NCBI GenBank assembly: GCA_036676455.1
Contig: JAKFCW010000101.1
Location: 5,211-69,210 of the forward strand
Length of the DNA stretch: 64,000 bases
Direction of reading: 5' to 3'
DNA from: Candidatus Sericytochromatia bacterium
GTDB taxonomy: Bacteria > Cyanobacteriota > Sericytochromatia > S15B-MN24 > UBA4093
In this document: in pieces, positions 23,060-64,000 of the stretch
Position numbering within the stretch: position 1 is the stretch's first letter
Layout: each line of letters starts with the position of its first letter
Made by a program: the position numbers and the translations under genes
The notes under the pieces: generated by a model
Seen by the model: only the letters and a program-made list of their open reading frames with translations
What the model was told of the DNA's origin: nothing
The model's database searches: none

Positions 23060-24205
23060 TCACGCGGTCGGCTCGCGCCGCCGTAGCAGCCGTGCACTCC
23101 AGGCGGTGACGAGCAGCGTGGCGACCATGCCGATCAGGCCGGATTCCCAGGCCAGCATCACCGAGACGAAGTAGTCGTAGTTGAAGAGCCGAACCAGCGA
23201 GACCTTGATGGAGGTCACGTCGCCCAGGCGTGTGATCAGCAGCAGGGAGAGCGAGAGCCCGAAGTACATGAGGCCGGTGCCAATCGCGAGTGCAGGCAAG
23301 ACCTTGCGGCCTTCCCGTAGGCCGGCTTCCAGAGCGTCCTCCTGCGGGTGTTGGGTGATCGCCCGCGCTGTCACCAGGCTCGCCAAGATCAGCCCCCCGA
23401 GAGTGGTCAGGACGGACCCGGCCAGCCAGAGCTGGCGGTAGTCGAGCGTGCGGGACTGGTTGACCTGCGTGTACAACACCAGGGCATCCGGGGTCGCGAG
23501 CCCGCTGACGTGTCCGGTCGCGTAGGCGATCGCCATGACGGCAATCGTTACGACCAGCCCCGCTCCCAGGCCCAGCATGGCGGCTCGAAGTGCCGTCGAA
23601 CGCTTTTCCAGTGCGAGGCGGAGGGCGCCCAGGCCGATGGCCAGGCCAGCGAGGCCGCTCAGCGCGGCCGGAGAAACGCCGCGGATCAAGAGGGGGAGCA
23701 CGACGACGTAGAGCCCGCCGAAAACCGCGATGACCATGGCCAGGGCCTTCAGGCCTGCCTGCCGGCCGACCAGCAGCAGGGCCAGGGCGCTCAGGGCCGA
23801 AACCCAGGCCAGGGCTGGCCGGCGGTCGTAGTCGACCACCCGGTAGAGCATGCGCCCATCGGAGAGCCGGCTTTCGGCCACGATGACTCGCTCACCGAGG
23901 CGCGGATCGACATCGACGCTGGGGTTGCCGAAGAGGTAGTGCTCGACCGTGACGCGCTGGCCGTGGTGTGCGCCGCTCAGCAGCTCGACCGTCAGTGAGA
24001 GCTGGGGAGGCTCCTGGAACAGCCCGCCTGGCATTCGCGGGAGAGCGTCCGGGGCGAACGTAGCGGGGATCTCGACGATCACGCCCGATACGTAGGTTTC
24101 CGCCCCCTGGAAGAGCTGGATCGGCATGTGGGCCTGGGCCTCGCGGGGCATGAGCGCCGCGAGCAGGACGATCGCCAGGGCGATCAGGGCTCGGAGGAGG
24201 CTCAT
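23060..24205 (-). CDS. YibE/F-like integral membrane protein, 381 aa
   Basis: ATG at 24205 overlaps the upstream TGA (ATGA). The order is an N-terminal signal/TM, a ~130-aa extracytoplasmic beta domain (QLSLTVELLSGAHHGQRVTVEHYLF...YRVVDYDRRPAL), then 6-7 TM segments, which is the YibE/F arrangement. The 962-aa track ORF is a frame read-through into the upstream gene. Confidence 0.6.
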   Translation of the reverse strand: MSLLRALIALAIVLLAALMPREAQAHMPIQLFQGAETYVSGVIVEIPATFAPDALPRMPGGLFQEPPQLSLTVELLSGAHHGQRVTVEHYLFGNPSVDVDPRLGERVIVAESRLSDGRMLYRVVDYDRRPALAWVSALSALALLLVGRQAGLKALAMVIAVFGGLYVVVLPLLIRGVSPAALSGLAGLAIGLGALRLALEKRSTALRAAMLGLGAGLVVTIAVMAIAYATGHVSGLATPDALVLYTQVNQSRTLDYRQLWLAGSVLTTLGGLILASLVTARAITQHPQEDALEAGLREGRKVLPALAIGTGLMYFGLSLSLLLITRLGDVTSIKVSLVRLFNYDYFVSVMLAWESGLIGMVATLLVTAWSARLLRRREPTA

Positions 24206-26796
24206 GGGGTCCAGTTGACCTGCGCATAGTCGAGGGTCGGGGCGAGGCCTGCGGCCTGCTTGAGCATGAGGATCTTCAGCCTCAGCTCGGGGTAGGCGAT
24301 GGTCGACAGGCCGGCGAGCGAGACAGGGGTCGTGCTGAAGCCGGAGGAGTTGTTGGGCAGGACGGTGTCGGGCAATGCCACGCCGTCCTTGGAAAGCACC
24401 TGGATGCGGACAGCGCTTCCGGCGGGCGTTGCGGCCGAATAGCTGAGATCGCCCCACGCGGTGAGGGAGTTGGGGGCGATCGCCAGGGTCGTCGCCGTCG
24501 AGGCGGTCGAGCCGATGTCCACCCGGCTGAGCAGGGGCTTGGATTCGATGCTGTTGGTCGTCAGAGTCGCCTTGTAGCGCAGGTAGCGCCCGGTGACCCC
24601 GGCAGGCACCGCGCCTGGAGCCGAGTACGAGGTGCCGGCCGTTCCGTCGGGTCCCTTCCACGCGAGGTCCGTGGCGCCCGCATCGTCGGTCGCGGCCACC
24701 TGGAAGCTGATCTTGGTATCGGTGCTGGGATGCGCCGAGACCCAGCTGAGGCGGGTGCCGGCCCAGTTGTAGCCATTGGCCCCCGAGTTGAAGGCGCGCG
24801 AGGTGAAGCTGCCCGAGACCGAGGTGCCGCGGTCGAAGGTGTAGTACATCGAGTTGATCATGGCCTTGGCCTCGAACTCGCTGGGCACCGCCTGCGTGTG
24901 GCCGTAGCTGAAGAAGGCCGCGTTGGAGTTGGCCGTCGTGAACGTGGTCCAGTAGGGGTAGGCCTTGGCATCGGCCTCGGTCGTCACCTTGAAGGCATAC
25001 CAGACTGTCGCGGGATTCGCCACGTGGTTCGAGGAATGGGAGTTCTGGATCGAGAACTGGCTGACGGCCGAGAGGTTGAAAGGCTTGTTGAGCACGGGGC
25101 TGGACGTGTTGACCCCCGGAGCCTGGTAGACGGTGGTGGCTGTGAGGGCGCTGCCTCCGGCGGTCATGCCGTGCAGGTCGGTGAGCGAGAAGAAGTTGGG
25201 CCGGCTGGTCGGCAGGGTATCGTGGGTGAAGACGATGCCCCGTCCCAGCAGCGCGAAGCTGCGCGTGAGATCCCGCGAGTTGGTCGTGAGGTCCATGCCG
25301 CCGCCGCCGAAGGCGGCCGACTTGGCGTAGGAGTCGGCCACGCCGAAGTAGAGGATGTCGTAGTCCTGCAGGGTGCGCGTCACGGTGCCGCCCAGGGTGG
25401 CGGTGGCCGGGGCGACGGTGCCGGACTTGTTGACCACCGTCACCGAGAAGGTCGCGTCGAGCGTGGTCAGGGTGTTGTAGGTGGTGACGGGCAGGGTGTC
25501 GAACGAGAAGAGATCCGGCCGCCAGTTGTAGACCCCCTGGGCCGCCACGATCTGGCTCTGGCCGTCGGGGTAGACCTGCAGAACCCGCAGGGCACCGATC
25601 TGAAGCGTCACCGCACCGTCTCCGCCGTCGACCGGGTCGGGCACGTCCTTGCTCACGGGGCCGCTCACGGCGCCCGCGGCGAAGTCGGCGTTCGTCGTGT
25701 CGACGAAGCCCAGGCCGGTGCCTCCCTGCATGGTCAGCGCTCCACTGCTGACGGTGGTGTTGAAGAGGTCCTTGAGGTCGTTGGAATCGTCGTAGGGATC
25801 CTTCCAGCCGGTTTGCGTCCAGACCGGGCCGGTCTTGAGCAGGCCTCCGACCTGGACGGAGATCGGGCCCGACAGGCCCAGGCGGCGGGGCACCTTCACG
25901 GAGAGGACCTCGCGATCGGCGCTCACGGAGAGGACCTCGCCCTTCCAACCGTTGAACTTCACCACGTTGTTGGACGGGATGGGATCGAAGGCATACCCCG
26001 CGAGAGTCACCGTGTCCTGCGACATGCCGGTGGTCGGAGTCACGCTCTGGATCGAGAAGCCCTGCTCCGTGCGCAAGTACCGGCGCGGGGGGCCCATGTC
26101 CATCGAGACGGCGAAGACGGGATCCACGTCGCGATCCAGCGCCTCGTTGACCAGGGCGAAGACCTGGTGGTACTCGTCATTGCCGATCTGCGAGGCTCCC
26201 GGCTGGAACGTGTCGGACGTGGCGGGGCTCAGCGAGGAGTCGGGGAAGCCGACGTTGAGCGCGTTGATCATGCCCTCGGTGTTTACGGTCTGGCCCGCCG
26301 CGTTGCGGAGGTTCGTGATGATCGAGAGGGCCGTGGTCGAGCGGTTGACGATGATTCCCTGGCGGGAGATGCTCTTCCAGGTGCCGCTGCGCCAGTAGAT
26401 CAGCGTGCGCACGCGAGCGAGCGATGCCCCGGCCCGGTTGGAGTCTCCCCCGGCCGAGAGGCCCTTGGCTGCCTCGAGGAAATAGGCGGCCGTGCGGCTG
26501 GGGCGGAAGGAGCTGCCGAACTTGAGGCTGAAGATGCCGTCCACGTCCGTCACCGAGGAGGCGATCGTCTCGTTGGTGGCGGCGTTGATCAGGCTGACCG
26601 TCGCGCTGACGGCGACCTCTCGCATGTCGGCCTGGACGGAGCGCTCGGCGAAGCGGACGCTTCCCGTCAGCTCGGGGGTCGGGCCGTTCTCCTCGGGCGC
26701 CTGGGTCGGGACGATCGGGCGGGTGCAGCCCACCAGCACGAAGAGCGCCAGTAGAACGGAGAGTACCGTCCTCGCCGATTGCGTGATTCCGCGCAT
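24202..26796 (-). CDS. Large lipoprotein with the shared N-module (CarboxypepD_reg-like + linker + IPT/TIG) and a unique ~550-aa C-terminal region, about 864 aa
   Basis: MRGITQSARTVLSVLLALFVLVGC lipobox. Family motifs are VSATVSLINAATNETIASSVTDVDGIFSL, AYFLEAAKGL, NRAGASLARVRTLIYW, STTALSII and LDRDVDPVF. The IPT-like segment is IQSVTPTTGMSQDTVTLAGYAFD...VKFNG...LSVKVP...SGPISVQVGG. ATG at 26796 (GGGG 5 nt upstream), or GTG at 26802. Confidence 0.8.
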   Translation of the reverse strand: MRGITQSARTVLSVLLALFVLVGCTRPIVPTQAPEENGPTPELTGSVRFAERSVQADMREVAVSATVSLINAATNETIASSVTDVDGIFSLKFGSSFRPSRTAAYFLEAAKGLSAGGDSNRAGASLARVRTLIYWRSGTWKSISRQGIIVNRSTTALSIITNLRNAAGQTVNTEGMINALNVGFPDSSLSPATSDTFQPGASQIGNDEYHQVFALVNEALDRDVDPVFAVSMDMGPPRRYLRTEQGFSIQSVTPTTGMSQDTVTLAGYAFDPIPSNNVVKFNGWKGEVLSVSADREVLSVKVPRRLGLSGPISVQVGGLLKTGPVWTQTGWKDPYDDSNDLKDLFNTTVSSGALTMQGGTGLGFVDTTNADFAAGAVSGPVSKDVPDPVDGGDGAVTLQIGALRVLQVYPDGQSQIVAAQGVYNWRPDLFSFDTLPVTTYNTLTTLDATFSVTVVNKSGTVAPATATLGGTVTRTLQDYDILYFGVADSYAKSAAFGGGGMDLTTNSRDLTRSFALLGRGIVFTHDTLPTSRPNFFSLTDLHGMTAGGSALTATTVYQAPGVNTSSPVLNKPFNLSAVSQFSIQNSHSSNHVANPATVWYAFKVTTEADAKAYPYWTTFTTANSNAAFFSYGHTQAVPSEFEAKAMINSMYYTFDRGTSVSGSFTSRAFNSGANGYNWAGTRLSWVSAHPSTDTKISFQVAATDDAGATDLAWKGPDGTAGTSYSAPGAVPAGVTGRYLRYKATLTTNSIESKPLLSRVDIGSTASTATTLAIAPNSLTAWGDLSYSAATPAGSAVRIQVLSKDGVALPDTVLPNNSSGFSTTPVSLAGLSTIAYPELRLKILMLKQAAGLAPTLDYAQVNWTP

Positions 26797-26870: not shown

Positions 26871-27965
26871 TTACGGGACGAAGACGTGGACCCGGTGGCC
26901 CGTCTCGTCCGTCACCCAGAGCCGGCCGCCCGGAGCGAAGGCCAGGCCATGGGGCCGTAGGCCGATGGTGTAGTTCTTGACGAATGCGCCCGACGCGTTG
27001 AACTTCTCGACCTTCCCGGCGGCCGGGACGCTGACCCAGGCGTTGCCGGAAGCGTCGATGGCCATGTCCGCGGGGGCGCCGCTGAGCCCCCGGTTCAGGG
27101 TCTCGTCCGTCGCGGGGTCGATCCGCCAGACGCTGTTGCCGCTGTGGTTGAGCACCCAGATGGCGTCCGCGGACGCGCGGATCACGCCGGGGTTGCTCCC
27201 GACGGGGATCGTGCGATCGGGGTTGCCCTGGCCGTCGTAGACCTCGACCCGGTCATTCTCCGTGTCGGTGACCCAGATCTTCCCGCCATGAACGGCGACT
27301 CCGCCGGCGGCGAGGGTGGCGACGGACTGGGTCGCGTTGTTCTGGGTTGCCAGCTTGACGAGGGCGCGAGCGCCCTCCAGGGCCACCCAGAGGTTCCCGT
27401 CGTTGTCCGCGGCGAGATCGCGGGGGCCGGCGCCGACCTGGACCTGGGACATGGTTCCGCTGGCAGTGAACTTGGTGAGGGTGTTGCCGGAGCGATTGGC
27501 CACCCAGATGTTGCCCGACTTGTCGGCCACGACCGCCGAGGGAGCGTCTCCGGTCGGCGGGTCGCCGAGGAGCTGGCCGGTAGAGTCGACTTTTGCCACG
27601 TTCCCGGACTCGTTCAGGGCGACCCAGGCGTTACCGCTCCAGTCGAAGGCCAGGCCGCGCGGGTCGCCGTACCCGATGGTGACGGCGAAGGCGACGCTCT
27701 CGGAGGGAGGAGGCGTCGGGGTGGGCGTGGGCGTGGGAGTGGGGGAGGCGACCACGGGAGGCGGGCTCTCCTGGCCGCCGATGTTGCCGCCGAGGTTGCT
27801 GCCGTCGGGAGTTGGCGTGCTGCCGTCCGTTCCGGACGTGCCGCCGGGTCGGGTGCCGGTGCGGCCTCCGATGAGCAGACTGTCATCCTCGGCACAGCCC
27901 ACTCCGATCATGGTGAGGGCGAGCCCCAGGGCCACCGCGGAAATCAGCTGTCGGCTCGCGACCAT
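26871..27965 (-). CDS. Lipoprotein: S-type leader (GCAEDDSLL) + Pro/Thr linker + single NHL-type beta-propeller, 364 aa
   Basis: The leader is LALTMIGVGC-AEDDSLLIGG and the linker is [13 protein letters not shown]. About six repeats of the G-N-(I/L)-W-V-A pattern follow (GNAWVALNESGNVAKV, GNIWVANRSGNTLTKF, GNLWVALEGARALVKL, GKIWVTDTENDRVEVY, DAIWVLNHSGNSVWRI, GNAWVSVPAAGKVEKF, GRLWVTDETGHRVHVF). Confidence 0.8.
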   Translation of the reverse strand: MVASRQLISAVALGLALTMIGVGCAEDDSLLIGGRTGTRPGGTSGTDGSTPTPDGSNLGGNIGGQESPPPVVASPTPTPTPTPTPPPSESVAFAVTIGYGDPRGLAFDWSGNAWVALNESGNVAKVDSTGQLLGDPPTGDAPSAVVADKSGNIWVANRSGNTLTKFTASGTMSQVQVGAGPRDLAADNDGNLWVALEGARALVKLATQNNATQSVATLAAGGVAVHGGKIWVTDTENDRVEVYDGQGNPDRTIPVGSNPGVIRASADAIWVLNHSGNSVWRIDPATDETLNRGLSGAPADMAIDASGNAWVSVPAAGKVEKFNASGAFVKNYTIGLRPHGLAFAPGGRLWVTDETGHRVHVFVP

Positions 27966-28091: not shown

Positions 28092-30206
28092 ATGTCGCGG
28101 ACGAGGTTTCGGGGAACTGACGCGAAACGAATCGCCGGCGTGCTGCTCGTCCTCTCGATGCTGGCGCTCGCGGGCTGCCCCCGGCCGATGCTCTCCACCA
28201 CCGGGGACATGGCTCCGCCCGTCGTGGGCGCGATCGACTTCACCTCGGAGCTATCGACCCAGGCCACCATGGCCGAGATCGCCCAGGCGGCGACCGTGAG
28301 TCTGATCGACCCTTTCCAGGGGCAGACGGTCGCGACCTCGATCACCGATTCCAACCGTCAGTTCCGTTTGACCTTCGACTCCACCTTCAAGCCGGGCAAC
28401 GCGCCCTACTACCTCGAGGCGGTCAAGGGCCTCCAGGTGGGCGGGGCGGCCAACCGGGCGGGCGCGCCCGCCGCGCGCATCCGGACGCTGATCCAGTGGA
28501 CCGACGCCGGCTGGCAAAGCGTCTCCTCGGGCTCGATCACCGTCAGCGCGACCACCACCGCCCTCAGCGTGATCGCGAGCCTGCGCTCCGACGATGTCTC
28601 CCGGCCTGCGCTCATCAACTCGCTCGTGATGGATACGCCCGACACGTCCGTTCTGCCGCAAACCCCGGACACCTTCGCGCCGGGCGCCTCCGGGGTCACC
28701 AACGCCGAGTTCCACCGCGCCTACGAGCTGGTCTCCAACGCCCTCTCGCTCGATCAGGATCCCCTGCAGGTGATCTACCGGGCCGAGGACGGCAGCTACC
28801 AGCGCGTGACCCAGGGCTCGACCGTGCAGCGGGTCAGCCCCACGAACGCCGCGATCGGGGCGGCCGTGACCATCGTGGGGCACGGCTTCGCCACGCCGGC
28901 GGCCAACAACGTGGTCACCTTCACCGGGGGCGTCACGGCCGTCCCCACGGCCGTGAACGCCGATCGCACGCAGCTCACGGTGACGGTGCCCGCCGGAGCC
29001 GGCACGGGCCCCGTGGCCGTCTCCTCCACGACGGGGGAGCTCTCGGTATCGGGCGGGTTTTTGGCGATCGCCAACGCTCCTTTAGCCGGCACCCGCTTCA
29101 TCGGTCTGAATGCCGGCGACATCGACCCGACGGGACGCGACCTCGGCAACTTCGCCCGGATCGTCGCCCTGCACCCGAACACCCGGATCACCCTCCACAC
29201 CATCCGGAGCACCGGCGCGGTCGATCATACGGAGAGCCGACTTCTCATCTCGGCCGGCAGCGTCTGGGAGCCCGCCCTGCTCGCTGACCGGATCGGCATG
29301 TTCCAGATTCTCAGCGACAAGCCCGTGCTCGCCAGCTACGACGCGATGGCCTACGACGCTCTGGCCACCGGCCATGCCAGCGACGACGAGTGGGCCACCC
29401 AGACCGGAACCGATTACTATATCCGGGTGCCGCGGACCCATGGCGAGTACCAGATCATTTCGCATGCCTCCAACAACACGGTGTCGCTCACCTGCGCGAT
29501 CGACCCCACCCTCAACGAGACCCAGACCCTGGCGGAAGGCGGAACCCTCAGTCGCACCAGCGTCCCGAGCGGAGCCACCAGCTACTGGTTCCGGGTCCAG
29601 AGCACCCATCCCACCACCGCGATCTACGGGATCTTCGCCGACAACGCCTCCACCCAGGTCTTCTCGGCCGACATGAAGACCTTCTACGCGGCGCACCTGA
29701 GCGGAGGAGCGGCGGCCAAGTACCAGCTCGTCGGCTACGAGGACGGCACCTCGGTGACGGTCACCAACCTCATGACCGGCGTCCCGGAAACCATCGCGCT
29801 CAACGCCGGCCAGCTCGCCGCACGGCCCTACGGCACCACGGGCCTGGTCAAGACGCGGGTCGTCTCGAACAAGCCGCTCGGCTTCTACGTGACCGACTAC
29901 GGCATCTACTACGAGAACAACCAGCACGGCAGCGTGGACCAGCCCGGATCCATCGGCAAGACCTACCGGATCGTCGCGCCCGGCACGACGGCGACCAACG
30001 TCTACGTGCTGTCGCTCTCGGGTTCCAACACGGTGACGCTTACCGGCGGCCTGACCGGAACCCAAGCCCTTGGAGAGCTCCAGTGGAAGAACGTGGGCTC
30101 GCTTGCCCCCAACACGGTCCTCACCCTGAGCGCCGATGAGCCGATCGCCGTCTTCACGGCCGATAACTACCCCAACGAGTTCAACTACACGCTGTTGCCT
30201 TACTAG
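28092..30206 (+). CDS. Large lipoprotein with the shared N-module and a unique repetitive beta-rich C-terminal region, about 704 aa
   Basis: ATG at 28092 follows GAGGGAGGG. The lipobox is LALAGC-PRPM. Family motifs are AATVSLIDPFQGQTVATSITDSNRQFRL, PYYLEAVKGL, NRAGAPAARIRTLIQW, TTTALSVIASL and LDQDPLQ. The IPT-like segment is VQRVSPTNAAIGAAVTIVGHGF...VVTFTG...LTVTVPAGAGTGPVAV. Confidence 0.8.
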   Translation: MSRTRFRGTDAKRIAGVLLVLSMLALAGCPRPMLSTTGDMAPPVVGAIDFTSELSTQATMAEIAQAATVSLIDPFQGQTVATSITDSNRQFRLTFDSTFKPGNAPYYLEAVKGLQVGGAANRAGAPAARIRTLIQWTDAGWQSVSSGSITVSATTTALSVIASLRSDDVSRPALINSLVMDTPDTSVLPQTPDTFAPGASGVTNAEFHRAYELVSNALSLDQDPLQVIYRAEDGSYQRVTQGSTVQRVSPTNAAIGAAVTIVGHGFATPAANNVVTFTGGVTAVPTAVNADRTQLTVTVPAGAGTGPVAVSSTTGELSVSGGFLAIANAPLAGTRFIGLNAGDIDPTGRDLGNFARIVALHPNTRITLHTIRSTGAVDHTESRLLISAGSVWEPALLADRIGMFQILSDKPVLASYDAMAYDALATGHASDDEWATQTGTDYYIRVPRTHGEYQIISHASNNTVSLTCAIDPTLNETQTLAEGGTLSRTSVPSGATSYWFRVQSTHPTTAIYGIFADNASTQVFSADMKTFYAAHLSGGAAAKYQLVGYEDGTSVTVTNLMTGVPETIALNAGQLAARPYGTTGLVKTRVVSNKPLGFYVTDYGIYYENNQHGSVDQPGSIGKTYRIVAPGTTATNVYVLSLSGSNTVTLTGGLTGTQALGELQWKNVGSLAPNTVLTLSADEPIAVFTADNYPNEFNYTLLPY

Positions 30207-55077: not shown

Positions 55078-55269
55078 ATGAAATCCCTGTTTCCCATCCT
55101 CGGTCTGATCCTGGCGACCGCCATGGCCTTCGGGGCCGGGTGCGCGGACGATGGCGCACTCTTTGGCGTGGGGGGCAGCGGAGGCAAGAAAGCGTCCGCC
55201 GCTCCCCAGGCGAGCCCGGCCCCATCGGCCAGCCCGTCGGGCACCGGAGGCTCGATCGTCAACGATTGA
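55078..55269 (+). CDS. Very small lipoprotein (S'3), 63 aa
   Basis: AAAGAGG RBS. It translates as MKSLFPILGLILATAMAFGAGC-ADDGALFGVGGSGGKKASAAPQASPAPSASPSGTGGSIVND. Confidence 0.65.
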   Translation: MKSLFPILGLILATAMAFGAGCADDGALFGVGGSGGKKASAAPQASPAPSASPSGTGGSIVND

Positions 55270-58400: not shown

Positions 58401-58937
58401 AAGCGCGCCTCGGACGGCAAGATCTTCCACCTCACGCGAGATGGCCGCTTCGATGCCTGGACCAACAACTATGTCACCTCCTCGGGGACCATGTTCACGG
58501 GAGGCAGCTCGGCCGTTCCGGACGGCAAGGGCAACTGGGTCTCGGTCTTCGAGACGATCTGCGGAGGCAAGAGCCTCATCGTCGGCGACCTGGCCGGCAC
58601 GTTCCAGCAGTATGCGGGCAGCCGGATCGGCATGACGCAGTGCTGGGTCACGGTCGGGTCGATGACCAGCGATGGCGACGGGAAGGTCTTCGTGGTGAGC
58701 AATCCGCAAGGTCGCCTGCATCGTTACGACGTGGCGACGGGAGTGCTCGAGCACCTGCCCAAAACCGGCGGAGCCTACAACGACGGGGACCAGGGGCTCG
58801 GCGTCGCGGCCTACAACGACAAGGTCTACGTGACGATGCGCAACCGGCACGTGGTCGACGTCTTCAACGCCGATGCGGCGGCGGACGGCGCCTTCATCGA
58901 GACGTTGAACGTCGGCCTGGTCAACCCCGAGCTTTGA
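55437..58937 (+). CDS. Giant lipoprotein, class A (A2', closest to A2). About 1166 aa.
   Basis: TTG at 55437 lies 5 nt after AAAGGAG. The leader is LLASAHARRSSLAIVYVLLAALVALLTAC-PRPLLAP. The track ORF start at 55140 would span the terminator hairpin. Motifs match A2 (LYYFEAVKGL, ERDPIRWITLDS, LAVIDGHSVVR, TSPQALTFGPDGCLYVACGG, IYCADNVSNRIYMVN). It ends VGLVNPEL. Confidence 0.8.
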   Translation: MLASAHARRSSLAIVYVLLAALVALLTACPRPLLAPTGAGGAQGMALDPEAAVSGHVDFGARKTQATIKDDVAPGATVSLIEVTSGQTLATTFSQPDGRFVLQFSNGFKPVSGGLYYFEAVKGLSGPTGQPNAVGADAVRVRTIASYRRGGWVTLSTKGVTTSISLSPMTTALSVVVSLRTGTAKSIDPTTLFGAVRAGQGEGSYPDALTLPDPTLVPPSMVYEAYDLVVDALAKERDPIRWITLDSADLTSLSLPTIPFSIKYLVPSMQEVGQKLDLVGVNFAQNPADNKVSFTTDGGWVPVTEIGPVSADLTRLTVTVPNGAISGPVRLEIGGKMLSTDPDKSFSLAVIDGHSVVRVLDRKAYLFVANPAKGTISKVTPEGEVVPFLSGLTSPQALTFGPDGCLYVACGGAKNQIVRITLTAALTAASSDVRDYSTPLVNPTGLAFDMTQVSTQATVASAPLYAVTGDGQLYRLPWTGALENVVPVLVPLQGASLSGPRGISFGYKDDDWRLWIPNAIANNVVIVDPATGQATVELSGIGKPSGVAFDSKGNLYISSNTGNSIFRREAGQSELKPFSSVPTPAGLDADASGYIYCADNVSNRIYMVNSQGESRMLATGISYPLGVHADADGIFVVTEIGQILRISHGSGVVSLFADGLSNPMSLGRDADGNFYVHQPALKQITRLATVTDASGRLTGMIDSYLPVSNVRDIHVAGRKLYLQKTLIKNPQGEDEGRGGVEIRDLSDWGTTESLYTGFIRDGVGMSFDNSTGPFQGALYLANFTDNSIVRMDADAANPPRGKIRPFLNGTQNPKLVRPNDVWVDPANGNVWVSIQGINTDTDGLIVLDSAGVELKDYSTLVNRPRKLGFDETHLYLTNEGGNEVIRIDRTTGAKLASYAVPKPLSLAFDTATDTMYVGSNDGQIYRITGYRTATPAAAAPFHALHAYDLYFHTDNYLYAANSSTWKIEKDGSTRFVYRRHYGQIYDFAKRASDGKIFHLTRDGRFDAWTNNYVTSSGTMFTGGSSAVPDGKGNWVSVFETICGGKSLIVGDLAGTFQQYAGSRIGMTQCWVTVGSMTSDGDGKVFVVSNPQGRLHRYDVATGVLEHLPKTGGAYNDGDQGLGVAAYNDKVYVTMRNRHVVDVFNADAAADGAFIETLNVGLVNPEL

Positions 58938-58941: not shown

Positions 58942-61900
58942 ATGACCATGCCCTTCATGCGCGTTTTGAACTTGCTCTTGGTCGTGCTGCTCGCGGGGTG
59001 CCGCCTGCCGTCGCTACTGCCGCATGCCGCTACCCCGCTTGACGGAACCTCCGCCGCCATGCCGGCGCATGTGCTGCAAGGGCGAATCGTGTCGCCGCCT
59101 CAGGTGCAGGCTTCCCTGACCGACATCGCCTCGTTCGCGAGCATCGCCCTGATCGACTCCGAGACGGGCTACACGGCCGCGACGACCGTCAGCGGCGCGA
59201 ACGGCACCTTTACCCTGAGGTTCGAGGCCGGCTTTTCGCCGGTCGATGGCCGTGCCTACTACCTCGATGCCATCAAGGGCATCAAGGAGACCGGGCCCGC
59301 CACCGACCCCAACCCCCTCTTCAATCAGGCGGGCGCTGATGCCGTGCGGCTGCGCACGGTCCTCTTTCATCAAAGCATGCCCGAAGGCTGGGTGAGCCTC
59401 AAGAACGCCGCGCCAGGCGCGATCTACATCAGCCGGGGCACCACGGCGATCGCCATGGCGGTCTTCCTCAAGCAGCAGTCCCAGGCCATCGCCTGGAGTT
59501 CCCTCATCGGGGCCCTGCACGTGGAGACCGACGCCTATACCGAGGTCCCGGCTTCACTGACCTCCACCGAGTTCCAGGATGCCTACGCCATCGTGGACGA
59601 GGCGATCACCCAGCATCGCGACCCGCTTCAGTTCCTCGCCTTCGACTCGGCCGTCGGCTTCGTCAACCTTTACAACGGCCACTCGGTCGATTCCCTGGAG
59701 CCCGATCACGGCGCGATCAACCAGCAGATCGTGATCAAGGGGGACGGCTTCCTGACCCCCGGCGACGTGACGGTCACCTTCAACACGACCGAGACGGTCC
59801 CCCCGACGGGAGCCAACCGCACCAAGGACAGGCTCGTGGTGACGGTTCCCCCGGGAGCCCGAACCGGGCCGGTGCTCGTCAAGATCGGCACGGTGACCCA
59901 GGCCGGCCCGGCTTTCACGGTGGATTCCTACGACGGGCATCGCGCCAAGCTGGGCGACACCCTTTACGTCGCGAACTTCGACCGCGCCAAGATCGTCAAG
60001 GTCTCGCCGGACGGCGTGGTCGAGGATTTCGCCGACGTGCCGGCCGGTCCCACGCAGCTTGCGATCTACACGGACGACTCCGATCCCCTTCAGCCGATCG
60101 AGCGCTTGTTCGTTGCCTGTGAGACCGCCGACCAGATCGTGACCCTCGACCTGCGCGAGCCCGCTCCGATCGCCCAACCCTTCGTGAACCTCACCAAGCC
60201 TGCAGGCCTGGCCTTCCTCGGAAACGTCCTCTACGTCTCCAGCAAGTCCCTCAAGACCGTCTCGCGCTTCAACCTCGACAAGTCCTCGGCAGGGGACGCG
60301 CTCACGGGCTTCGAGGCTCCAGCAGCCCTGGCGTTCGACTTCGAGAGCCAGCTCTTCGTCGCGGACGGCAACAAGGTCCTCCGGGTCAACCTGACGACGG
60401 GAACGTCGCTGGTCTGGATCTACCTCTCCAGCCCCCGGGGCCTGAGCGTCGATTCCGGCGGCACGCTCTACGTGGCCAACTACGACGACGGCGTGATTTA
60501 CCGGATCCTCGTCATCCCGCCCACCAACCGCCGGGCGGCCTACGTCTTCGCCCGCGTCCCCAATCCCACCGGCATCATGCTGGATGCCGCCGGGTACATG
60601 TTCGCCGCCTCGGAGACGCAGCATCAGATCTCGCGGATCTCTCCGCTGGGCGACATGAAGCCCTACGCCTACGGCATCGCGAACCCCCGCGGCCTGGCCG
60701 TGGATGGCGCCGGGAACCTCTACGTCTCCCTCAGCCAGTCGAACGCCGTCTTGAAGGTGGAGCAGAACGGATCCTATCGAACCCGGCCCTTCGTCACGGG
60801 GATCCCCAACCCGCATTCCATCACGTGGCGCAACGACAAGCTCTACCTCGCCCACCGGGATGCCGGCGTGGTCTCCTCGGCGACCGCCGCGGGGAGCATG
60901 AAGACGGAGGCCGTGGGGTTCACCATGCCCGGCGGCGCGGACGTGGCGGCCGACGGCACGATCTTCGCGGGGCGCTACGGCGCGAGCTGGCACCTGGAGG
61001 TCTGGCCGCCCGATCCCACCCATGTCCACTACAACCGGGGTGGCCTGGAGTCCTACGCCAACGGAGTGATTTCCCTCGACCGCGGCTTCGTCAGGACCAG
61101 CCTCAAGGGCCTGGTGGGCCTGGACGACGGCACACGCTACGTCCTGACCTCCCAGAACACCTTGCTGGAACTCAAGGCCACCAACGGGCCGTCGTCATCC
61201 TACCGGTATCGCCAGCTGGATGCCTACGCCCAGACCCCGCTCCGGATCGAGCGGGATGGAGCGGGCAACCATCTCTACGTGCTCCTGGAGGGCTCGAAGG
61301 ATGTCCTCCGTTACGAGAAACTAGGCGACTCCTGGGTCAAGTCCGTGCTCGACCTCGATCCCGCGCTCGACAAGACGGGTTTCACCAATCCGACGCGGAT
61401 GACCTTCGATGCGGCCGGTGACCGCCTCTATGTGCTCGATGGCGGAGTGCTGAAGCGCGTCGAGGGCGCCACGACCGCGACTCCGGCGCTTTCCACGAAG
61501 GCGCCCGGAGAGCTTTGGTCGGTCTCCTTGACCGGAGCGAACAGTATTTCCTACAAGAACTCCCGGATTTACGTGACCTATGGCAACACCTGGATTCGCT
61601 CTCTCGATTCGACCCTGGCTTCCCCGACCGTCTCGGACTACGCCCAGGGACCGGTCAACCTGACCGGGGTCATCGCCCATCCCGTGAGCGACTATCTTTT
61701 CGCTTACCAGGGTGAAGACGGCTACAAGGTCCCGCCCAGCGGGGTCTTCGAGTACCTCACCGGATACGGCGGCACGGCCTTCGCCTACACGCCGGACGGC
61801 ACCTTCATGCGGGACTACGTCAGTTACATGCCGCTTTATTTCGGCAAGACCACGCTGCCGGGCTTGGTCCAGACCCACGAAGTGGCGGTCGACGGTGACC

Positions 61901-62271
61901 GGGTCTACGTCGGAAGCTCGATGAACGATGAGTACACCGGGGTCTATCGCTTCGATCGCGATACCGGCGAGCAATGGCTCATCCGGGGTCTGGGATCCTC
62001 GGGGGCCAGCGCCATCGCCGTCGGGCCTGACCGGACGCTCTACGTGGGTGGGGGCAACGGCAAAATTTACCAGGTGGACGGCAACGGCGCGGCCTCGGCA
62101 GCCTGGGTGACGACTCCCGCCATTCCAAGCGATCGCCTCTACGGCCTTGACATCACGGCCAACGGCACCAAGCTCTGGGCGATCGGCAGTTCGCGCACCA
62201 TCTACGGCATCACGGTGGCCGGCAAGACCGTCGAGCTGGTCAAGCCGGGCCTCTCGTCGCCACGCTTCTAG
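58942..62271 (+). CDS. Giant lipoprotein, class B (B2', closest to B2). 1109 aa.
   Basis: The leader is MTMPFMRVLNLLLVVLLAGC-RLPSLLP. Motifs match B2 (AYYLDAIKGI, NQAGADAVRLRTVL, QHRDPLQF, VDSYDGHRAKLGDTLYVANFDRAKIVKV, YGIANPRGLAVDGAGNLYVSLSQSNAVLKV). It ends KPGLSSPRF. Confidence 0.85.
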   Translation: MTMPFMRVLNLLLVVLLAGCRLPSLLPHAATPLDGTSAAMPAHVLQGRIVSPPQVQASLTDIASFASIALIDSETGYTAATTVSGANGTFTLRFEAGFSPVDGRAYYLDAIKGIKETGPATDPNPLFNQAGADAVRLRTVLFHQSMPEGWVSLKNAAPGAIYISRGTTAIAMAVFLKQQSQAIAWSSLIGALHVETDAYTEVPASLTSTEFQDAYAIVDEAITQHRDPLQFLAFDSAVGFVNLYNGHSVDSLEPDHGAINQQIVIKGDGFLTPGDVTVTFNTTETVPPTGANRTKDRLVVTVPPGARTGPVLVKIGTVTQAGPAFTVDSYDGHRAKLGDTLYVANFDRAKIVKVSPDGVVEDFADVPAGPTQLAIYTDDSDPLQPIERLFVACETADQIVTLDLREPAPIAQPFVNLTKPAGLAFLGNVLYVSSKSLKTVSRFNLDKSSAGDALTGFEAPAALAFDFESQLFVADGNKVLRVNLTTGTSLVWIYLSSPRGLSVDSGGTLYVANYDDGVIYRILVIPPTNRRAAYVFARVPNPTGIMLDAAGYMFAASETQHQISRISPLGDMKPYAYGIANPRGLAVDGAGNLYVSLSQSNAVLKVEQNGSYRTRPFVTGIPNPHSITWRNDKLYLAHRDAGVVSSATAAGSMKTEAVGFTMPGGADVAADGTIFAGRYGASWHLEVWPPDPTHVHYNRGGLESYANGVISLDRGFVRTSLKGLVGLDDGTRYVLTSQNTLLELKATNGPSSSYRYRQLDAYAQTPLRIERDGAGNHLYVLLEGSKDVLRYEKLGDSWVKSVLDLDPALDKTGFTNPTRMTFDAAGDRLYVLDGGVLKRVEGATTATPALSTKAPGELWSVSLTGANSISYKNSRIYVTYGNTWIRSLDSTLASPTVSDYAQGPVNLTGVIAHPVSDYLFAYQGEDGYKVPPSGVFEYLTGYGGTAFAYTPDGTFMRDYVSYMPLYFGKTTLPGLVQTHEVAVDGDRVYVGSSMNDEYTGVYRFDRDTGEQWLIRGLGSSGASAIAVGPDRTLYVGGGNGKIYQVDGNGAASAAWVTTPAIPSDRLYGLDITANGTKLWAIGSSRTIYGITVAGKTVELVKPGLSSPRF

Positions 62272-62284: not shown

Positions 62285-62632
62285 ATGAGACGAGACCTGT
62301 TGCCGACCCTTTTCATTGCCCTTGCGCTCGCCCTGGCGGCCGGCTGCGCCGGCGAGGACGACCTGCTCGGCGGAGCGGGAGCACGGAAGCCGGCTTCCGG
62401 CACGGCCGTGGAGGGTGCGGCGAGCGATACCGGGGCGGGATCGCAAACTCAGACCCCCACCCCCACCCCCACGCCGACTCCCTCGCCCACCGCGACCCCG
62501 ACGCCCGTGCCGACGCCGACGGAATATGCGACCATGCAGCCGCCGCCGGTCAACGATGAACCGGAGGGCCCCGAAGCGAGCCCGCCGCCGATCGATCAGA
62601 CCGAGCCGATCGAGGATGAGAATACCGTCTAG
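62285..62632 (+). CDS. Small Pro/Thr-rich lipoprotein (S4), 115 aa
   Basis: The leader is MRRDLLPTLFIALALALAAGC-AGEDDLLGG, followed by [22 protein letters not shown] and an acidic tail. Confidence 0.75.
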   Translation: MRRDLLPTLFIALALALAAGCAGEDDLLGGAGARKPASGTAVEGAASDTGAGSQTQTPTPTPTPTPSPTATPTPVPTPTEYATMQPPPVNDEPEGPEASPPPIDQTEPIEDENTV

Positions 62633-62760: not shown

Positions 62761-64000
62761 ATGAGGAAGCGGGGAAATCTCTGGCTGACGTTGCTGATGG
62801 CCGTGCTGCTGGCAGGATGCCCTCGTCCCCTCGTTCATCCCCCCACCTCCGTGCCTCAGTCTCCCCCGGCGTTCGGCGTCCAGGTCATGGTGCCTCCGCT
62901 CCAGGGAAAGGTCGCCACCACCCCGCGCCAGATCCAGGCCGGCATGGAGGACATCGCCGTGGGGGCCACCGTCGCCCTCATCGACACCGGGACCAACAAC
63001 ACCGTCTCGAGCACGGTCACGGATAACGAGGGGCGATTCGTCCTCACGTTCAGCTCGGGATTCGTGCCGCAATCCGGCAAGACCTACTATCTGGAAGCTC
63101 TCAAGGGCCTGCCGGTCAACGGGCAGCCAAACCGCGCCGGCGCCTCGGCCGCTCGCGTGCGGACCCTCATCGCCTGGGAGCCGGCCGGCTGGATGAGCCT
63201 GACCAACGCCGATCCGGCCGGCGGGATCATCATCAGCCGCGCCACGACGGCGATCGGCATCATCTCCTCGCTTCGCACCGCCGCCAACGACGCCCCGACC
63301 CTCGCGCAGCTGATTGGCAACGTCGTCGACGGCACCACCTTCACCCCCTCCGGGGGGATCCAGGCCTCGGAGTTCGACACGGTCCTGGGCTTCGTGAACG
63401 ACGCGCTGTCCCAGAACATTGATCCCCTCTACTACGTCGCTTACGATGCCCTGAGCCGGCAATACCTGCCGCAGCCTCCCGGCGTGGATATCAAGCCTCC
63501 CAGCCCGCTGAAGGGGGGGATCGGGACCGCCGTTTTCATCGAGGGTACCGACATGGGCGCGAATCCGGAGGTGCGCTTCAACGGCGTCCTGGGCACGGAC
63601 ATGGTCGTGAGCCACTCAGGGGTCACGGTCAAGGTTCCCGCCGGCGCCACCAGCGGTCCCCTGACGATCCTGATCGACTCGCTGGCCTTCAACATCGGCA
63701 ACTTCGCCGTCACCAACTGGGATGGTCACAATCCCTTCGACTCCCAGGACAACCTCTATGTCGCGAGCGCCCTTTCCGACCAGATTCTCCGCATCACGCC
63801 CGCGGCGGACCCCAGCGTCTTCGCCGAAGACGCCCGGCTCGCCTACCCACGCGGCATCGTGGTCGACGCGCAGGACAACGTCCTCGTCTCGAGCTGGAAC
63901 GGCAACCAGATCCTCAAGGTCAGCCCGCTCGGAGTCATCACCGACTTCTCCACCCAGGGCGGCTTGATCTACAACCCCTGGCACCTCACCATGGACGGAG
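62761..64000 (+). CDS. Further family member (class-A-like lipobox CPRPL, N-module + start of NHL propeller). Open at the right edge.
   Basis: This ORF is absent from the track because it has no stop in the window. Reading from ATG 62761 gives MRKRGNLWLTLLMAVLLAGC-PRPLVHP...GATVALIDTGTNNTVSSTVTDNEGRFVL...TYYLEALKGL...NRAGASAARVRTLIAW...QNIDPLYY...IPT-like (GIGTAVFIEGTDMG...VTVKVPAGATSGPLTI)...NWDGHNPF...LYVASALSDQILRI...VLVSSWNGNQILKV. Confidence 0.8.
   Translation, partial: MRKRGNLWLTLLMAVLLAGCPRPLVHPPTSVPQSPPAFGVQVMVPPLQGKVATTPRQIQAGMEDIAVGATVALIDTGTNNTVSSTVTDNEGRFVLTFSSGFVPQSGKTYYLEALKGLPVNGQPNRAGASAARVRTLIAWEPAGWMSLTNADPAGGIIISRATTAIGIISSLRTAANDAPTLAQLIGNVVDGTTFTPSGGIQASEFDTVLGFVNDALSQNIDPLYYVAYDALSRQYLPQPPGVDIKPPSPLKGGIGTAVFIEGTDMGANPEVRFNGVLGTDMVVSHSGVTVKVPAGATSGPLTILIDSLAFNIGNFAVTNWDGHNPFDSQDNLYVASALSDQILRITPAADPSVFAEDARLAYPRGIVVDAQDNVLVSSWNGNQILKVSPLGVITDFSTQGGLIYNPWHLTMDG

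Follow-up and report, generated by a model that had tools for sequence, protein, structure and literature searches.

Within a 64,000-nucleotide stretch of DNA (the window), eleven large open reading frames (ORFs) that begin alike lie within 40 kb of one another and end in different ways. We asked what such an array is built from, how it arose and what its products might do. The source bacterium is related to Candidatus Sericytochromatia. The segment from 24.2 to 64 kb forms an island of lipoprotein genes, and an ORF check of the window located all 11 ORFs, here named A to K, at the coordinates given below.

One N-terminal module in eleven lipoproteins

All 11 proteins share a positionally homologous N-terminal module (N-module) of ~320 to 350 aa, which runs from a lipobox through a short disordered tether (~20 residues) to a beta-sandwich domain (D1), a helical domain (D2) and one IPT/TIG domain. 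Alignment of the 11 N-modules with MAFFT gave 28 invariant columns in register, including the lipobox Cys, the K-G of "EAxKG", N..G....R.R(T), W, T(TA), D-P and the G(P) closing the TIG domain; the ordered motif set that an initial annotation had described recurs in this alignment in the same order in every ORF. Pairwise BLASTP of the N-modules without signal peptides, with composition-based statistics and SEG, was significant for 55 of 55 pairs. The alignments covered 221 to 317 aa, and the weakest pair scored 55.8 bits (E = 4e-7 for a 1e9-residue database). The top score among 220 shuffled control queries was 29 bits. A hidden Markov model of the N-module matched exactly the 11 ORFs in the window and nothing else, and homologues were found in other genomes at E = 1e-21 to 1e-30. 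The notion that the motifs merely reflect the composition of a genome of high G+C content (67%), with Ala/Gly/Val/Pro-rich and numerous spurious overlapping ORFs and no homology, can be dismissed, as it is refuted by the composition-corrected scores, the shuffled controls, the invariant columns, the outside homologues and a confidently predicted D1-D2 fold. The lipobox [LVI][ASTVI][GAS]-C was present within about 40 residues, with its Cys at position 10 to 37, in 11/11 window proteins and in nearly all N-complete relatives. These data demonstrate true homology among the 11 ORFs, each of which is built on the same N-terminal module.

We analyzed the D1-D2 pair (~190 aa) of protein G by structure prediction. 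Modelled alone (pLDDT 88.9, pTM 0.87), it is compact, with the D1 beta-sandwich packed against the helical D2. No Pfam or NCBIfam model reached its cut-off on D1-D2, and the N-module gave a single NCBIfam match, below threshold, in the TIG part of B (18.6 bits; cut-off, 200). No PDB sequence matched D1-D2; the profile of all 11 N-modules matched PDB chains only in the TIG part, with a best E of 2.5e-7. Foldseek searches of PDB and BFVD returned nothing at E<0.001, with a weak transthyretin- or pilin-like likeness (query-normalised TM <=0.3, E >=0.02). The carboxypeptidase-regulatory-like label (PF13620) first given to the beta-sandwich could not be upheld, as matches were confined to about 35 residues of C (17.5 bits) and E (18.2 bits), below the cut-off of 32.3. 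The TIG domain was recognised by PF01833 (gathering cut-off, 20.9 bits) in B (21.9 bits), F (23.6 bits) and H (30.9 bits), with A slightly below the cut-off at 18.6 bits, and an all-beta domain occupied the TIG position in the model of G (aa 261 to 349; positions 48519-48785). D1-D2 thus gives these proteins a previously undescribed front end.

D1-D2 was also detected in at least ~70 other proteins from Sericytochromatia metagenome-assembled genomes (MAGs) and compost metagenomes; these counts are lower bounds from an incomplete census, the exhaustive profile search having been flooded with multi-TIG proteins. Among the matches listed (~80 members including the window), D1-D2 is always N-terminal, directly after the lipobox. 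It is followed by tandem propellers, a single NHL propeller, TIG arrays, Kelch-like repeats, heads of the A or B type, or no head at all, as in an N-module-only protein; assembly GCA_017744355.1 carries single-propeller versions in tandem. The proposal of a conserved module with exchangeable heads is well supported by these head architectures (at least six) and by one real head replacement, that of G in locus L014, described below. Source annotations of family members ("sugar lactone lactonase YvrE," "glucose/arabinose dehydrogenase," "PknD kinase") are automatic, and "PknD kinase" is clearly wrong.

Three-gene cassettes and the age of the copies

Eight of the 11 genes belong to a conserved, compact three-gene cassette that is present four times on the forward strand and consists of a type 1 gene (T1), a type 2 gene (T2) and a small lipoprotein gene (S1). 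T1 proteins carry CPRPL after the lipid-modified Cys position and end in GLVxPEL, T2 proteins carry C[RK]LPSL after the lipobox and end in P[RV]F, and S1 is a Pro/Thr-rich lipoprotein of ~110 aa with "CAEDDGL," sometimes with a second small gene (S2, ~65 aa) behind it. Each subtype pairs its own residues after the Cys with its own C-terminus, and both tails are strictly conserved within their subtype. The duplication unit is this cassette of T1, T2 and a small lipoprotein, which the initial annotation had overlooked.

Cassette 1 comprises C (30869..34378; 1169 aa; CPRPL, ending GLVTPEL; N-module, 30869-31900), with tandem propeller regions and a 92% identical orthologue, P0171; D (34389..37661; GTG start; 1090 aa; CKLPSL, ending GIMEPVF; N-module, 34389-35348); and an S1 (37661..38032; 123 aa) whose start overlaps the stop of D and in which "GCAEDDGL" precedes a Pro/Thr-rich part with tandem PT-coding repeats. 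A 48-aa orphan ORF downstream on the same strand (38193..38339), with a type-1-like signal peptide and CPRPL and a gene call in Logan contigs too, may be the 5' remnant of a type 1 gene. Cassette 2 comprises E (38541..42035; 1164 aa; N-module, 38541-39581), F (42045..45422; 1125 aa; N-module, 42045-43028), S1 (45431-45760; 109 aa) and S2 (45768-45971; 67 aa; FGAGCAEEDGLFGVGG). Their orthologues in L014 are 93%, 94%, 82% and 96% identical, respectively, and F is identical to database protein P0061. In cassette 3, the modelled protein G (47739..51284; 1181 aa) consists of a signal peptide with Cys29, a tether (aa 30 to 50), D1 (aa 52 to 166) and D2 (aa 168 to 240; D1-D2 together, 47892-48458), the TIG domain and two propeller regions (aa 355 to 740 and 760 to 1181); it is followed by H (51297..54710; 1137 aa; N-module, 51297-52289) and by S1 and S2 (54711-55040, 109 aa, and 55078-55269, 63 aa; full span, 54711..55269). 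Cassette 4 comprises I (55437..58937; 1166 aa; TTG start uncertain; N-module, 55437-56489), of which database protein P0001 is a near-identical N-terminal fragment, J (58942..62271; 1109 aa; N-module, 58942-59931) and S1 (62285..62632; 115 aa). The cassette is kept at six other loci (L007, L010, L011, L012, L013 and L014), and some other genomes hold it as a single copy. A mirror-tree comparison of T1 and T2 gave r = 0.96, which was matched by 4 of 5000 permutations. T1 and T2 thus co-diverge, as is expected from co-inheritance alone, so that the correlation is no proof of physical interaction.

Three paralogues lie outside the cassettes. A (24202..26796, reverse strand; ATG start; 864 aa; N-module, 25825-26796) has the lipobox VGC followed by TRPIV and a 540-aa head that is not a propeller, with 54% head identity to its orthologue P0115. 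B (28092..30206, forward strand; 704 aa; N-module, 28092-29033) has CPRPM after the lipobox Cys and a beta-rich head of 390 aa (60% head identity to its orthologue P0194). As first reported, the two heads are unrelated to the propellers and to each other by BLAST; Pfam and PDB searches returned no match for either. K (62761..64000, forward strand; N-module, 62761-63720; CPRPL, DGH) is cut by the window end and represents an outlier subtype, with a 90% identical orthologue of at least 1046 aa in L014. Between A and B, on the reverse strand, lies a stand-alone lipoprotein gene without D1-D2 (26871..27965; 364 aa), in whose product a PTPTPT linker joins an S1-type N-terminus (GCAEDDSLLIGG) to a single NHL propeller (80.7 bits with Pfam NHL and 72.1 bits with Vgb_lyase). 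Next to the first cassette, a gene for a secreted 169-aa protein without a Pfam match (30203..30712, reverse strand) is conserved as a neighbour, with a 59% identical homologue upstream of the cassettes in L013.

The array had been described as an extreme local expansion, a wording that suggests a recent burst of 11 equivalent copies; the sequences show otherwise. Synonymous sites were saturated in all paralogue pairs (pS about 0.4 to 0.7), and N-module identity between window paralogues was at most 63%. All fully read paralogues (n = 10) except H had their own orthologue elsewhere at 55 to 94% identity, and H has its own in L014 at 62%. The window copies are thus ancient and individually maintained.

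Comparison with L014, from a close relative, revealed where the island changes. The flanking DNA is 92% and 88.5% identical (pS 0.10 to 0.25), whereas the head of G, H, S1/S2 and a pseudopilin trio embedded in the array differ at pS 0.37 to 0.62. Codons 1 to 200 of G remain near background (pS 0.24 to 0.36) and those beyond 200 are saturated, which places the breakpoint inside the N-module of G; in L014, the head of G, H and the trio have been swapped for a deeply divergent version. The whole I-J cassette is absent from L014, with no orthologous DNA there. Whole cassettes are therefore gained, lost or replaced between close relatives. The eleven copies within 40 kb, the one mosaic gene with a breakpoint in the shared N-module and the variable presence of cassettes might also be read as a recently amplified contingency locus, in which gene conversion reshuffles near-identical copies and so produces phase or antigenic variation. 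We consider this very improbable given the saturated synonymous sites, the ceiling of 63% on N-module identity and the separate orthologues of nearly every copy; moreover, no conserved upstream DNA or repeat elements were found.

Propeller heads and neighbouring filament genes

In nine of the 11 proteins (C to K), the TIG domain is followed by DGH and then by NHL, SGL or Vgb_lyase matches, as first noted. All nine are propeller proteins, but they do not form one set: two subfamilies alternate, and K is an outlier. Two large NHL/YWTD-like regions are present in each of the eight complete proteins, and K ends soon after its propeller starts. NHL (PF01436; cut-off, 20 bits) scored 23.9 to 55.8 bits in C to H and J; SGL (PF08450; gathering cut-off, 26.3 bits) scored 30.7 to 46.1 bits in D to J, with 46.1 bits in I; and Vgb_lyase was at its cut-off in D (50.7 against 50 bits). 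ScyE_fam (NF033206; cut-off, 80 bits) was exceeded in D (82.1 bits) and E (93.9 bits) and scored 55.8 to 68.8 bits in C, F, G and H, whereas ScyF (NF035926) reached 24 to 43 bits against a cut-off of 350, and no scytonemin (scy) genes were present among the window genes scanned. The structure prediction that had been proposed was carried out on G: the AlphaFold2 model (pLDDT 87.5, pTM 0.71) has 34 and 36 strands in its two propeller regions, and Foldseek agreed in identifying tandem YWTD-type propellers, with LRP2, LRP6 and ROS1/Sevenless as the best matches (E = 1e-25 to 1e-13). Conservation falls along the protein. Window type 1 proteins are 67 to 78% identical in D1 and 23 to 29% identical in the last ~420 aa, and dN climbs along the length of the protein.

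A type IV filament or type II secretion system (T2SS)-like cluster lies upstream of the island (10563..22994, mixed strands; Pfam and NCBIfam assignments). It contains pseudopilin genes (10563-11201, 14972-15556 and 15563-16102) and a secretin gene (13159-15054) on the reverse strand, and genes for GspF/PilC-like (16405-17946), PilM/N-like (18393-20051), faintly GspC-like (20048-21211) and MshEN domain-containing GspE/PilB-like ATPase (21201-22994) proteins. The three genes of the pseudopilin trio (46062..47690, reverse strand; 46062-46646, 46646-47068 [PilV-like] and 47055-47537/47690) lie between cassettes 2 and 3. Their products have N_methyl and PilV matches and the N-termini KG|MSLLE, QG|FSLLE and, in the third, a GspK/PilX-like one without Glu5. 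The window thus holds a secretin, an ATPase, a platform protein, a PilM/N-like fusion, a faint T2SSC match and six prepilin-type genes, and no PilT was seen in it. The NCBIfam equivalogs GspD (201 against 351 bits), GspF (288 against 424) and GspE (534 against 630) all fall below cut-off, and PilQ, PilC and PilB score similarly, leaving the cluster ambiguous between a T2SS and a type IV pilus. Type IV filament genes are linked to cassettes in the window and at L007, L013 and L014: the same cluster, at 80 to 92% amino acid identity, lies directly upstream of the cassettes at L007 (Sericytochromatia MAG LC028), and the trio adjoins cassettes in L013 (36 to 38% identity) and L014 (40 to 44% identity; pS 0.52 to 0.58). 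No secretion genes lie within 10 kb of the isolated cassettes at L010, L011 and L012, nor are pilin genes nearby, and the T2SS link is therefore not obligatory.

The best explanation of the whole, to which we assign a probability of roughly 55%, is a modular lipoprotein island that combines a shared stalk or docking N-module, T1-T2-S1 complexes and variable binding heads. The N-module would be a stalk or docking piece near the membrane that every member shares, an anchoring role that the initial annotation had also read from the architecture. Its conservation, the highest in the protein, and its invariant polar residues (K, N, R, R and D) make contact with one shared envelope partner probable. 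T1, T2 and S1 may function as one envelope-anchored complex. Ligand specificity would be set by the distal propeller, where variation is greatest, and the island would then be a repertoire of binding platforms. Surface display of the lipoproteins is probable, possibly aided by the neighbouring T2SS-like machinery and by the pseudopilins encoded within the array. From sequence, then, we infer envelope-anchored binding platforms that are possibly linked to the adjacent T2SS-like system.

That link could be closer if the proteins were partners of a type IV filament, either as cargo lipoproteins that dedicated tip pseudopilins pass on to the T2SS-like machine, like PulA and InvL, or as tip propeller adhesins, like PilC and PilY1, with the trio as cognate adaptor. 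The trio lies inside the array and also beside cassettes in the distant genome of L013, L014 has exchanged it together with the adjacent G, H and S1 while the flanks are still ~90% identical, and the T2SS-like cluster abuts the cassettes directly in L007. The strictly conserved, subtype-specific tails of T1 and T2 recall the short tail by which PilC and PilY1 dock. However, the trio is on the opposite strand and hence not in one operon with T1 and T2, isolated cassettes exist, and the PilC/PilY1 family differs in the respects given below, so that we regard this alternative as quite unlikely. Similarly doubtful is the specific proposal that T1-T2-S1 form heteromeric, lipid-anchored surface receptors or adhesins that are displayed via the T2SS-like filament machine through dedicated, co-evolving tip pseudopilins, with docking by D1-D2 or the C-terminal tail and a swappable repertoire. 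If true, cassette gain, loss and head replacement through recombination within the N-module would give Sericytochromatia swappable specificities, and a lipoprotein family would be coupled to a type IV filament system in a previously undescribed way.

The matched propeller families (SGL, Vgb_lyase and ScyE_fam) include enzymes, and the heads may therefore be catalytic rather than binding. They would then be Ca-dependent hydrolases or lyases, periplasmic or surface-tethered, akin to SMP-30/gluconolactonase, Vgb lyase or ScyD/E. The paralogues would differ in the small molecules or polymers that they act on in compost or soil, and the N-module would be no more than a tether. The above-cut-off scores in D to J and the lactonase and dehydrogenase source annotations favour such a role, although those annotations are automatic. 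However, the matches are scattered over many propeller families, as generic blade motifs would give; the residues invariant across T1 and T2 heads are typical blade residues (P, G and D in turns), with no catalytic constellation found among them; and extreme variability of the distal propeller would be odd for a conserved active site. We therefore judge enzymatic heads to be unlikely and retain the modular island of binding platforms as the preferred reading.

Comparison with known systems

The Bacteroides IPT/TIG and propeller proteins (PDB 3KYA, 3TC9, 4HW6 and 3HRP) are likewise envelope proteins with an N-terminal Ig-like TIG domain followed by a propeller, and the window TIG profile matched them at E = 2.5e-7 to 0.13, with similarity confined to the TIG domain. 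They are about 410 to 500 aa long and have a single propeller and a TIG domain close to the N-terminus, whereas the window proteins place the ~190-aa D1-D2 ahead of TIG and two large propeller regions behind it. A Bacteroidota Sus-like polysaccharide utilisation locus was rejected, as no SusC (TonB-dependent transporter) or SusD genes were seen among the Pfam matches of the context genes scanned. The ScyD, ScyE and ScyF proteins (NF033206 and NF035926) are cyanobacterial periplasmic propellers, and propeller region 1 of D and E exceeds the ScyE_fam cut-off; ScyD and ScyE each consist of one propeller of about 330 residues (the model has 333), and the window proteins are far larger. The window lineage is related to cyanobacteria. 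LRP2, LRP6 and ROS1/Sevenless share with G an arrangement of consecutive propellers, which in those receptors are six-bladed, of the YWTD/NHL kind, and serve as ligand-binding platforms, but they are eukaryotic, have EGF spacers and show 8 to 16% identity and low whole-chain TM, so that the likeness is one of fold class only.

The large propeller proteins PilC and PilY1 use a short C-terminal tail for docking to a minor pilin (bioRxiv 10.64898/2026.09.18.752573). Like the window proteins, they are large non-pilins with a C-terminal propeller, a conserved tail, adjacent minor pilins and variable adhesive parts (PMC7541494; bioRxiv 10.64898/2026.09.18.752573). However, they have an ordinary signal peptide in place of a lipobox, PilC is conserved in its C-terminal part and variable in its N-terminal part, the reverse of the window proteins, and no window protein has a Pfam match to the PilY1/PilC propeller family (IPR008707). 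The T1 tail of G is predicted to be ordered and packed (pLDDT about 94 for its final ~10 residues), whereas the PilC plug is disordered. We therefore do not place the window proteins among the PilC/PilY1 tip adhesins, with which they share adjacency to minor pilins only.

T2SS-dependent surface lipoproteins are established in Klebsiella PulA and Acinetobacter InvL (PMC12802150). The window proteins have no homology to these, their neighbouring cluster is ambiguous between a T2SS and a type IV pilus, and some cassettes lie far from such genes. They do resemble PulA and InvL in their lipobox and in adjoining a secretin, ATPase, platform and pseudopilin cluster, and by analogy the conserved residues immediately after their Cys could act as a sorting signal.

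Homology of the N-modules and the D1-D2 domain pair

Many spurious ORFs overlap the real genes of the window because its G+C content is high (65 to 69%). In the reading frames named by the initial annotation, GC3 was 0.86 to 0.93, as expected of real genes. The eleven ORFs so named, here called A to K, had been proposed to open with one ordered set of motifs (A, 24202-26796 on the minus strand; B, 28092-30206; C, D, E, and F, starting at 30869, 34389, 38541, and 42045; G, 47739-51284; H, 51297-54710; I, 55437-58937; J, 58942-62271; and K, from 62761 to past the window end). The translations bear this out, with the same order of signal peptide, lipobox Cys, and motifs in all eleven. Alignment of their N-modules (the N-terminal 314 to 352 residues, comprising lipobox, tether, domains D1 and D2, and one IPT/TIG domain) contained 28 columns that are invariant and 17 that are nearly so. 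After the signal peptides had been taken off, and under composition-based statistics and SEG filtering, all 55 pairs matched over 221 to 317 residues; the weakest pair scored 55.8 bits (E = 4e-7 for a search space of 1e9 residues), and the top score among 220 shuffled controls was 29 bits. Since every pair was significant, no shuffled control exceeded 29 bits, and an HMM of the N-module matched exactly these eleven ORFs and no others in the window, the objection that the motifs are shared merely through composition fails, and this explanation is effectively refuted with a negligible residual probability; the homology is positional.

An AlphaFold2 model of G (input of 44 homologues; pLDDT 87.5, pTM 0.71) placed the signal helix at aa 4-27 and a disordered tether at aa 28-50, with D1 (aa 52-166) predicted as a beta-sandwich, D2 (aa 168-240) as helical, and the TIG domain (aa 261-349) as all-beta, followed by two all-beta propeller regions of 34 strands (aa 355-740) and 36 strands (aa 760-1181) separated by a short, low-confidence linker (aa 741-752). 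From these strand counts, each propeller region was estimated to contain roughly 8 to 9 four-stranded blades.

When modelled alone, D1-D2 formed a compact unit (pLDDT 88.9, pTM 0.87). The carboxypeptidase-regulatory-like label that D1 had been given was not sustained, as CarboxypepD_reg matched only below threshold (17.5 and 18.2 bits versus a cut-off of 32.3). NCBIfam holds no model for the N-module, and its single match there was sub-threshold and lay over the TIG stretch of B; in a profile search of PDB sequences, the TIG part alone of the N-module was matched. Foldseek searches with D1-D2 against PDB and viral models returned nothing at E < 0.001, the best matches being a weak likeness to transthyretin and to Gram-positive minor pilins. 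D1-D2 is a new element: no Pfam or NCBIfam model reaches its cut-off over the pair, and no PDB structure matches it significantly. Taken together, the Pfam, NCBIfam, PDB, and Foldseek comparisons also speak against the possibility, raised by the initial annotation, that the N-module is a common and already annotated domain combination.

Two types of propeller lipoprotein in a three-gene cassette

Identity matrices divided the propeller proteins into type 1 (T1; C, E, G, and I) and type 2 (T2; D, F, H, and J). N-module identity was 54 to 63% within type 1, 42 to 59% within type 2, and 31 to 40% between types, and A, B, and K were outliers. T1 and T2 genes alternate along the DNA, with 9 to 12 nt between partners. 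Family-wide, type-1 proteins carry C-P-R-P-L after the lipobox and end in ...G-L-V-x-P-E-L, and type-2 proteins carry C-[RKQ]-L-P-S-[LM] and end in ...P-R-F or ...E-P-V-F. The C termini of C to J (e.g., 51261-51281 and 54687-54707) are strictly conserved and subtype specific, the type-2 forms being ...GLSxPRF or ...G[IM]MEPVF, with G at -7 and P at -3 invariant in both types. The C-terminal plug of PilC docks to a minor pilin (bioRxiv 10.64898/2026.09.18.752573); a PilC-type plug reading of these C termini was set aside, because the AlphaFold2 model of G predicts an ordered tail.

Directly after each type-2 gene lies a gene for S1, a Pro/Thr-rich lipoprotein of ~110 aa (37661-38032, 45431-45760, 54711-55040, and 62285-62632) with the N terminus GCAEDDGL (GC-A-E/D-E/D-D-G-L), whose start overlaps the type-2 stop in one cassette. 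In cassettes 2 (E-F) and 3 (G-H), S1 is followed by S2, a lipoprotein of ~65 aa with the motif FGAGCAEDGxLFGVGG (45768-45971 and 55078-55269). The acidic residues just after the Cys of S1 and S2 may resemble the lipoprotein export signal of Bacteroidota. Small lipoproteins of the S1/S2 type are conserved in related loci of other assemblies (L007 and L010 to L014). The order T1-T2-S1 recurs in Sericytochromatia LC028 (L007), as single isolated cassettes amid housekeeping genes in LC003 (L010) and two compost assemblies (L011 and L012), and as two cassettes in tandem in L013. Pairwise distances within T1 run parallel to those within the partner T2 proteins (r = 0.96; 4 of 5,000 permutations reached this value). 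The three-gene cassette, overlooked in the initial annotation, is therefore the unit of inheritance and duplication, and it is amplified in some genomes. Promoters, terminators, RNA families, repeats, and conserved DNA upstream of the genes were also sought at the locus, and the PT-coding repeats in the S1 genes were the sole find.

Three further ORFs lie in the same island. A stand-alone 364-aa lipoprotein (26871-27965, minus strand) has an S1-type N terminus, a PTPTPT linker, and one NHL propeller, and appears to be anchored in a second, more flexible way. Upstream of E, an orphan 48-aa ORF (38193-38339, plus strand) consists of little more than a type-1-like signal peptide and CPRPL; it may be what is left of a type-1 gene that was lost or rearranged. 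A 169-aa secreted protein with no family assigned (30203-30712, minus strand) adjoins the first cassette, and its counterpart in L013 (670-1125; 59% identity) has the opposite orientation relative to the cassette.

Distribution of the family, age of the copies, and exchange

Sericytochromatia, a lineage sister to cyanobacteria that does not photosynthesize, have been little studied; in the literature searched, we found nothing on their envelope lipoproteins and no description of this lipoprotein family. Some 70 further D1-D2 proteins were retrieved from databases. In these relatives D1-D2 begins 15 to 25 residues after the lipobox Cys, except in N-terminally truncated gene calls and in four full-length proteins without a match to the lipobox pattern used. 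Their heads include two propellers, a single ~300-aa NHL propeller, A-type or B-type regions, three TIG domains with NHL repeats or with Kelch-like repeats, or arrays of 7 to 16 TIG domains, and P0003 (326 aa) is headless. Five N-module genes stand in tandem in GCA_017744355.1 (L001, 10001-19850), one encoding the N-module alone (326 aa) and four the N-module with a single ~300-aa NHL propeller (627 to 642 aa). Named sources are the Candidatus Sericytochromatia MAGs LC028 and LC003, a MAG labelled Stenomitos, "bacterium," and compost metagenomes, and all loci carrying the family have a G+C content of 64 to 69%. In a profile search with the whole N-module, the TIG part drew thousands of multi-TIG proteins, and only about 26 of the 150 proteins listed match the whole module, so the result is no census of the family. 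A word-indexed search with a D1-D2-only alignment gave six short proteins, a number that reflects candidate selection and not rarity; a type-1-only alignment searched against genomes gave three loci. Family members (P0163, P0179, P0185, P0068, P0087, and others) are labelled "Serine/threonine-protein kinase PknD" in compost metagenomes and "sugar lactone lactonase YvrE" in JGI data, automatic and unreliable names that were evidently transferred from the NHL propeller alone. Given these labels, many metagenomes would be better annotated if the family were properly defined.

Synonymous differences between paralogues in the window are saturated (pS about 0.4 to 0.7 at a GC3 of about 0.9), so dN/dS ratios between them are meaningless and were discarded; divergence was assessed from the gradient of dN and from the contrast in pS with L014, a JGI contig from a close relative. 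Non-synonymous divergence climbs from the N-module to the distal propeller, and in type-1 proteins conservation is highest in D1 and lowest over the last ~420 residues. Nearly every paralogue has its own orthologue elsewhere (55 to 94% identity) that is nearer to it than any copy in the window. Together with the saturated pS, this shows that the expansion is old and the copies are individually maintained; a recent contingency locus is very improbable, indeed effectively refuted.

L014 is collinear with the window, with DNA identity of 92.3% over E-F-S1-S2 and 88.5% at K (pS 0.10 to 0.25). The I-J-S1 cassette (window 55270-62650) is absent from L014 (17166-17900), where K directly follows the G-H cassette. 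Deep divergence (pS 0.37 to 0.62; 40 to 66% amino acid identity) affects the G head, H, S1, S2, and a trio of prepilin-type genes between cassettes 2 and 3 (46062-47690, minus strand); in L014, the G head, H, S1, and the trio (for the trio, 40 to 44% amino acid identity and pS 0.52 to 0.58) are jointly replaced by divergent versions. Over its first ~200 codons, G stays near background (pS 0.24 to 0.36, pN 0.05 to 0.07). G is therefore a mosaic whose breakpoint falls within the conserved N-module; heads have really been exchanged in this case, and the exchangeability of heads foreseen by the initial annotation is seen here once. The deep allele replacement and the presence or absence of genes suggest selection on an exposed structure. 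These comparisons demonstrate a lineage-specific lipoprotein family with a shared N-module, variable heads, cassette organization, and cassette-level flux between relatives.

Neighbouring filament genes, proposed roles, and known systems

A type IV filament cluster lies upstream at 10.5 to 23 kb, with a secretin, a GspF/PilC-like platform protein, a PilM/N-like fusion, a faint GspC-like protein, three prepilin-type genes, and a GspE/PilB-like ATPase with an N-terminal MshEN-type c-di-GMP-binding domain (21201-22994, plus strand; MshEN 41.3 bits, NF053729 55.5 bits). This domain suggests that c-di-GMP controls the filament system. All scores in this cluster are below NCBIfam equivalog cut-offs and do not discriminate a type II secretion system (T2SS) from a type IV pilus. 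The secretion-system proteins are 80 to 92% identical to those of LC028, in which the secretion cluster abuts the first cassette (L007); from this likeness, the window probably derives from the class Sericytochromatia as well. A homologous pilin trio flanks cassettes in L013 (36 to 38% identity) and in L014; isolated cassettes have no filament, secretion, or pilin neighbours. Within the secretion cluster, 660- and 550-aa ORFs and a small lipoprotein-like ORF without Pfam match (8466-10448, plus strand; 11198-12850 and 12615-13175, minus strand) may be lineage-specific parts of the filament machine. Elsewhere in the window, two adjacent, overlapping SET-domain genes (556-1242 and 1239-1844, plus strand; 54.9 and 47.8 bits) are followed by an HD-domain protein and an M61 glycyl aminopeptidase on the opposite strand.

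We propose that the N-module would form a membrane-proximal stalk, probably docking to a common envelope partner, because no other part is as conserved and because K, N, R, R, and D residues are invariant in it. T1, T2, and S1 would act together, as suggested by how tightly their genes are packed, by the overlap of start and stop codons, by the constant gene order, and by co-divergence, and the distal propeller would set specificity. We put the probability of this overall reading, drawn from sequence and predicted models, at roughly 0.55.

In Foldseek comparisons, the G heads matched the tandem YWTD/NHL propellers of LRP2, LRP6, and ROS1 (E = 1e-25 to 1e-13); Pfam matches in the propeller heads are NHL, SGL, and Vgb_lyase, and for the A and B heads, searches of Pfam, NCBIfam, and PDB sequences gave no match even at E = 1. 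That the heads are enzymatic is, in our judgement, unlikely. The lipoproteins might also be coupled directly to the type IV filament, either as T2SS cargo, as are the lipoproteins PulA and InvL (PMC12802150), or at its tip like PilC/PilY1. Such coupling is favoured by the way the pilin trio co-varies with G/H and by the conserved tails at the C terminus; the lipobox, the lack of a PilY1-type propeller, and the tail predicted to be ordered speak against membership of the PilC/PilY1 family. We consider direct coupling quite improbable.

The proteins, if surface exposed, would probably be major determinants of binding to substrates, partners, prey, or phages, and variable heads could naturally be displayed on such a scaffold. 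As a clean and well-defined family in a poorly known lineage, they yield testable hypotheses about their putative roles. The island gives a concrete case of head replacement and cassette insertion or deletion between close relatives, alongside a co-varying pseudopilin set.

By sequence, the nearest known architecture is that of Bacteroides TIG-plus-propeller proteins solved by structural genomics (3KYA, 3TC9, 4HW6, and 3HRP), which, in contrast, lack D1-D2, have one propeller, and occur in another genomic context. Envelope lipoproteins with Ig-like stalks and propeller heads are a known kind; new are the D1-D2 pair, the T1-T2-S1 operon, and the exchange of cassettes and heads linked to a co-varying pseudopilin set.
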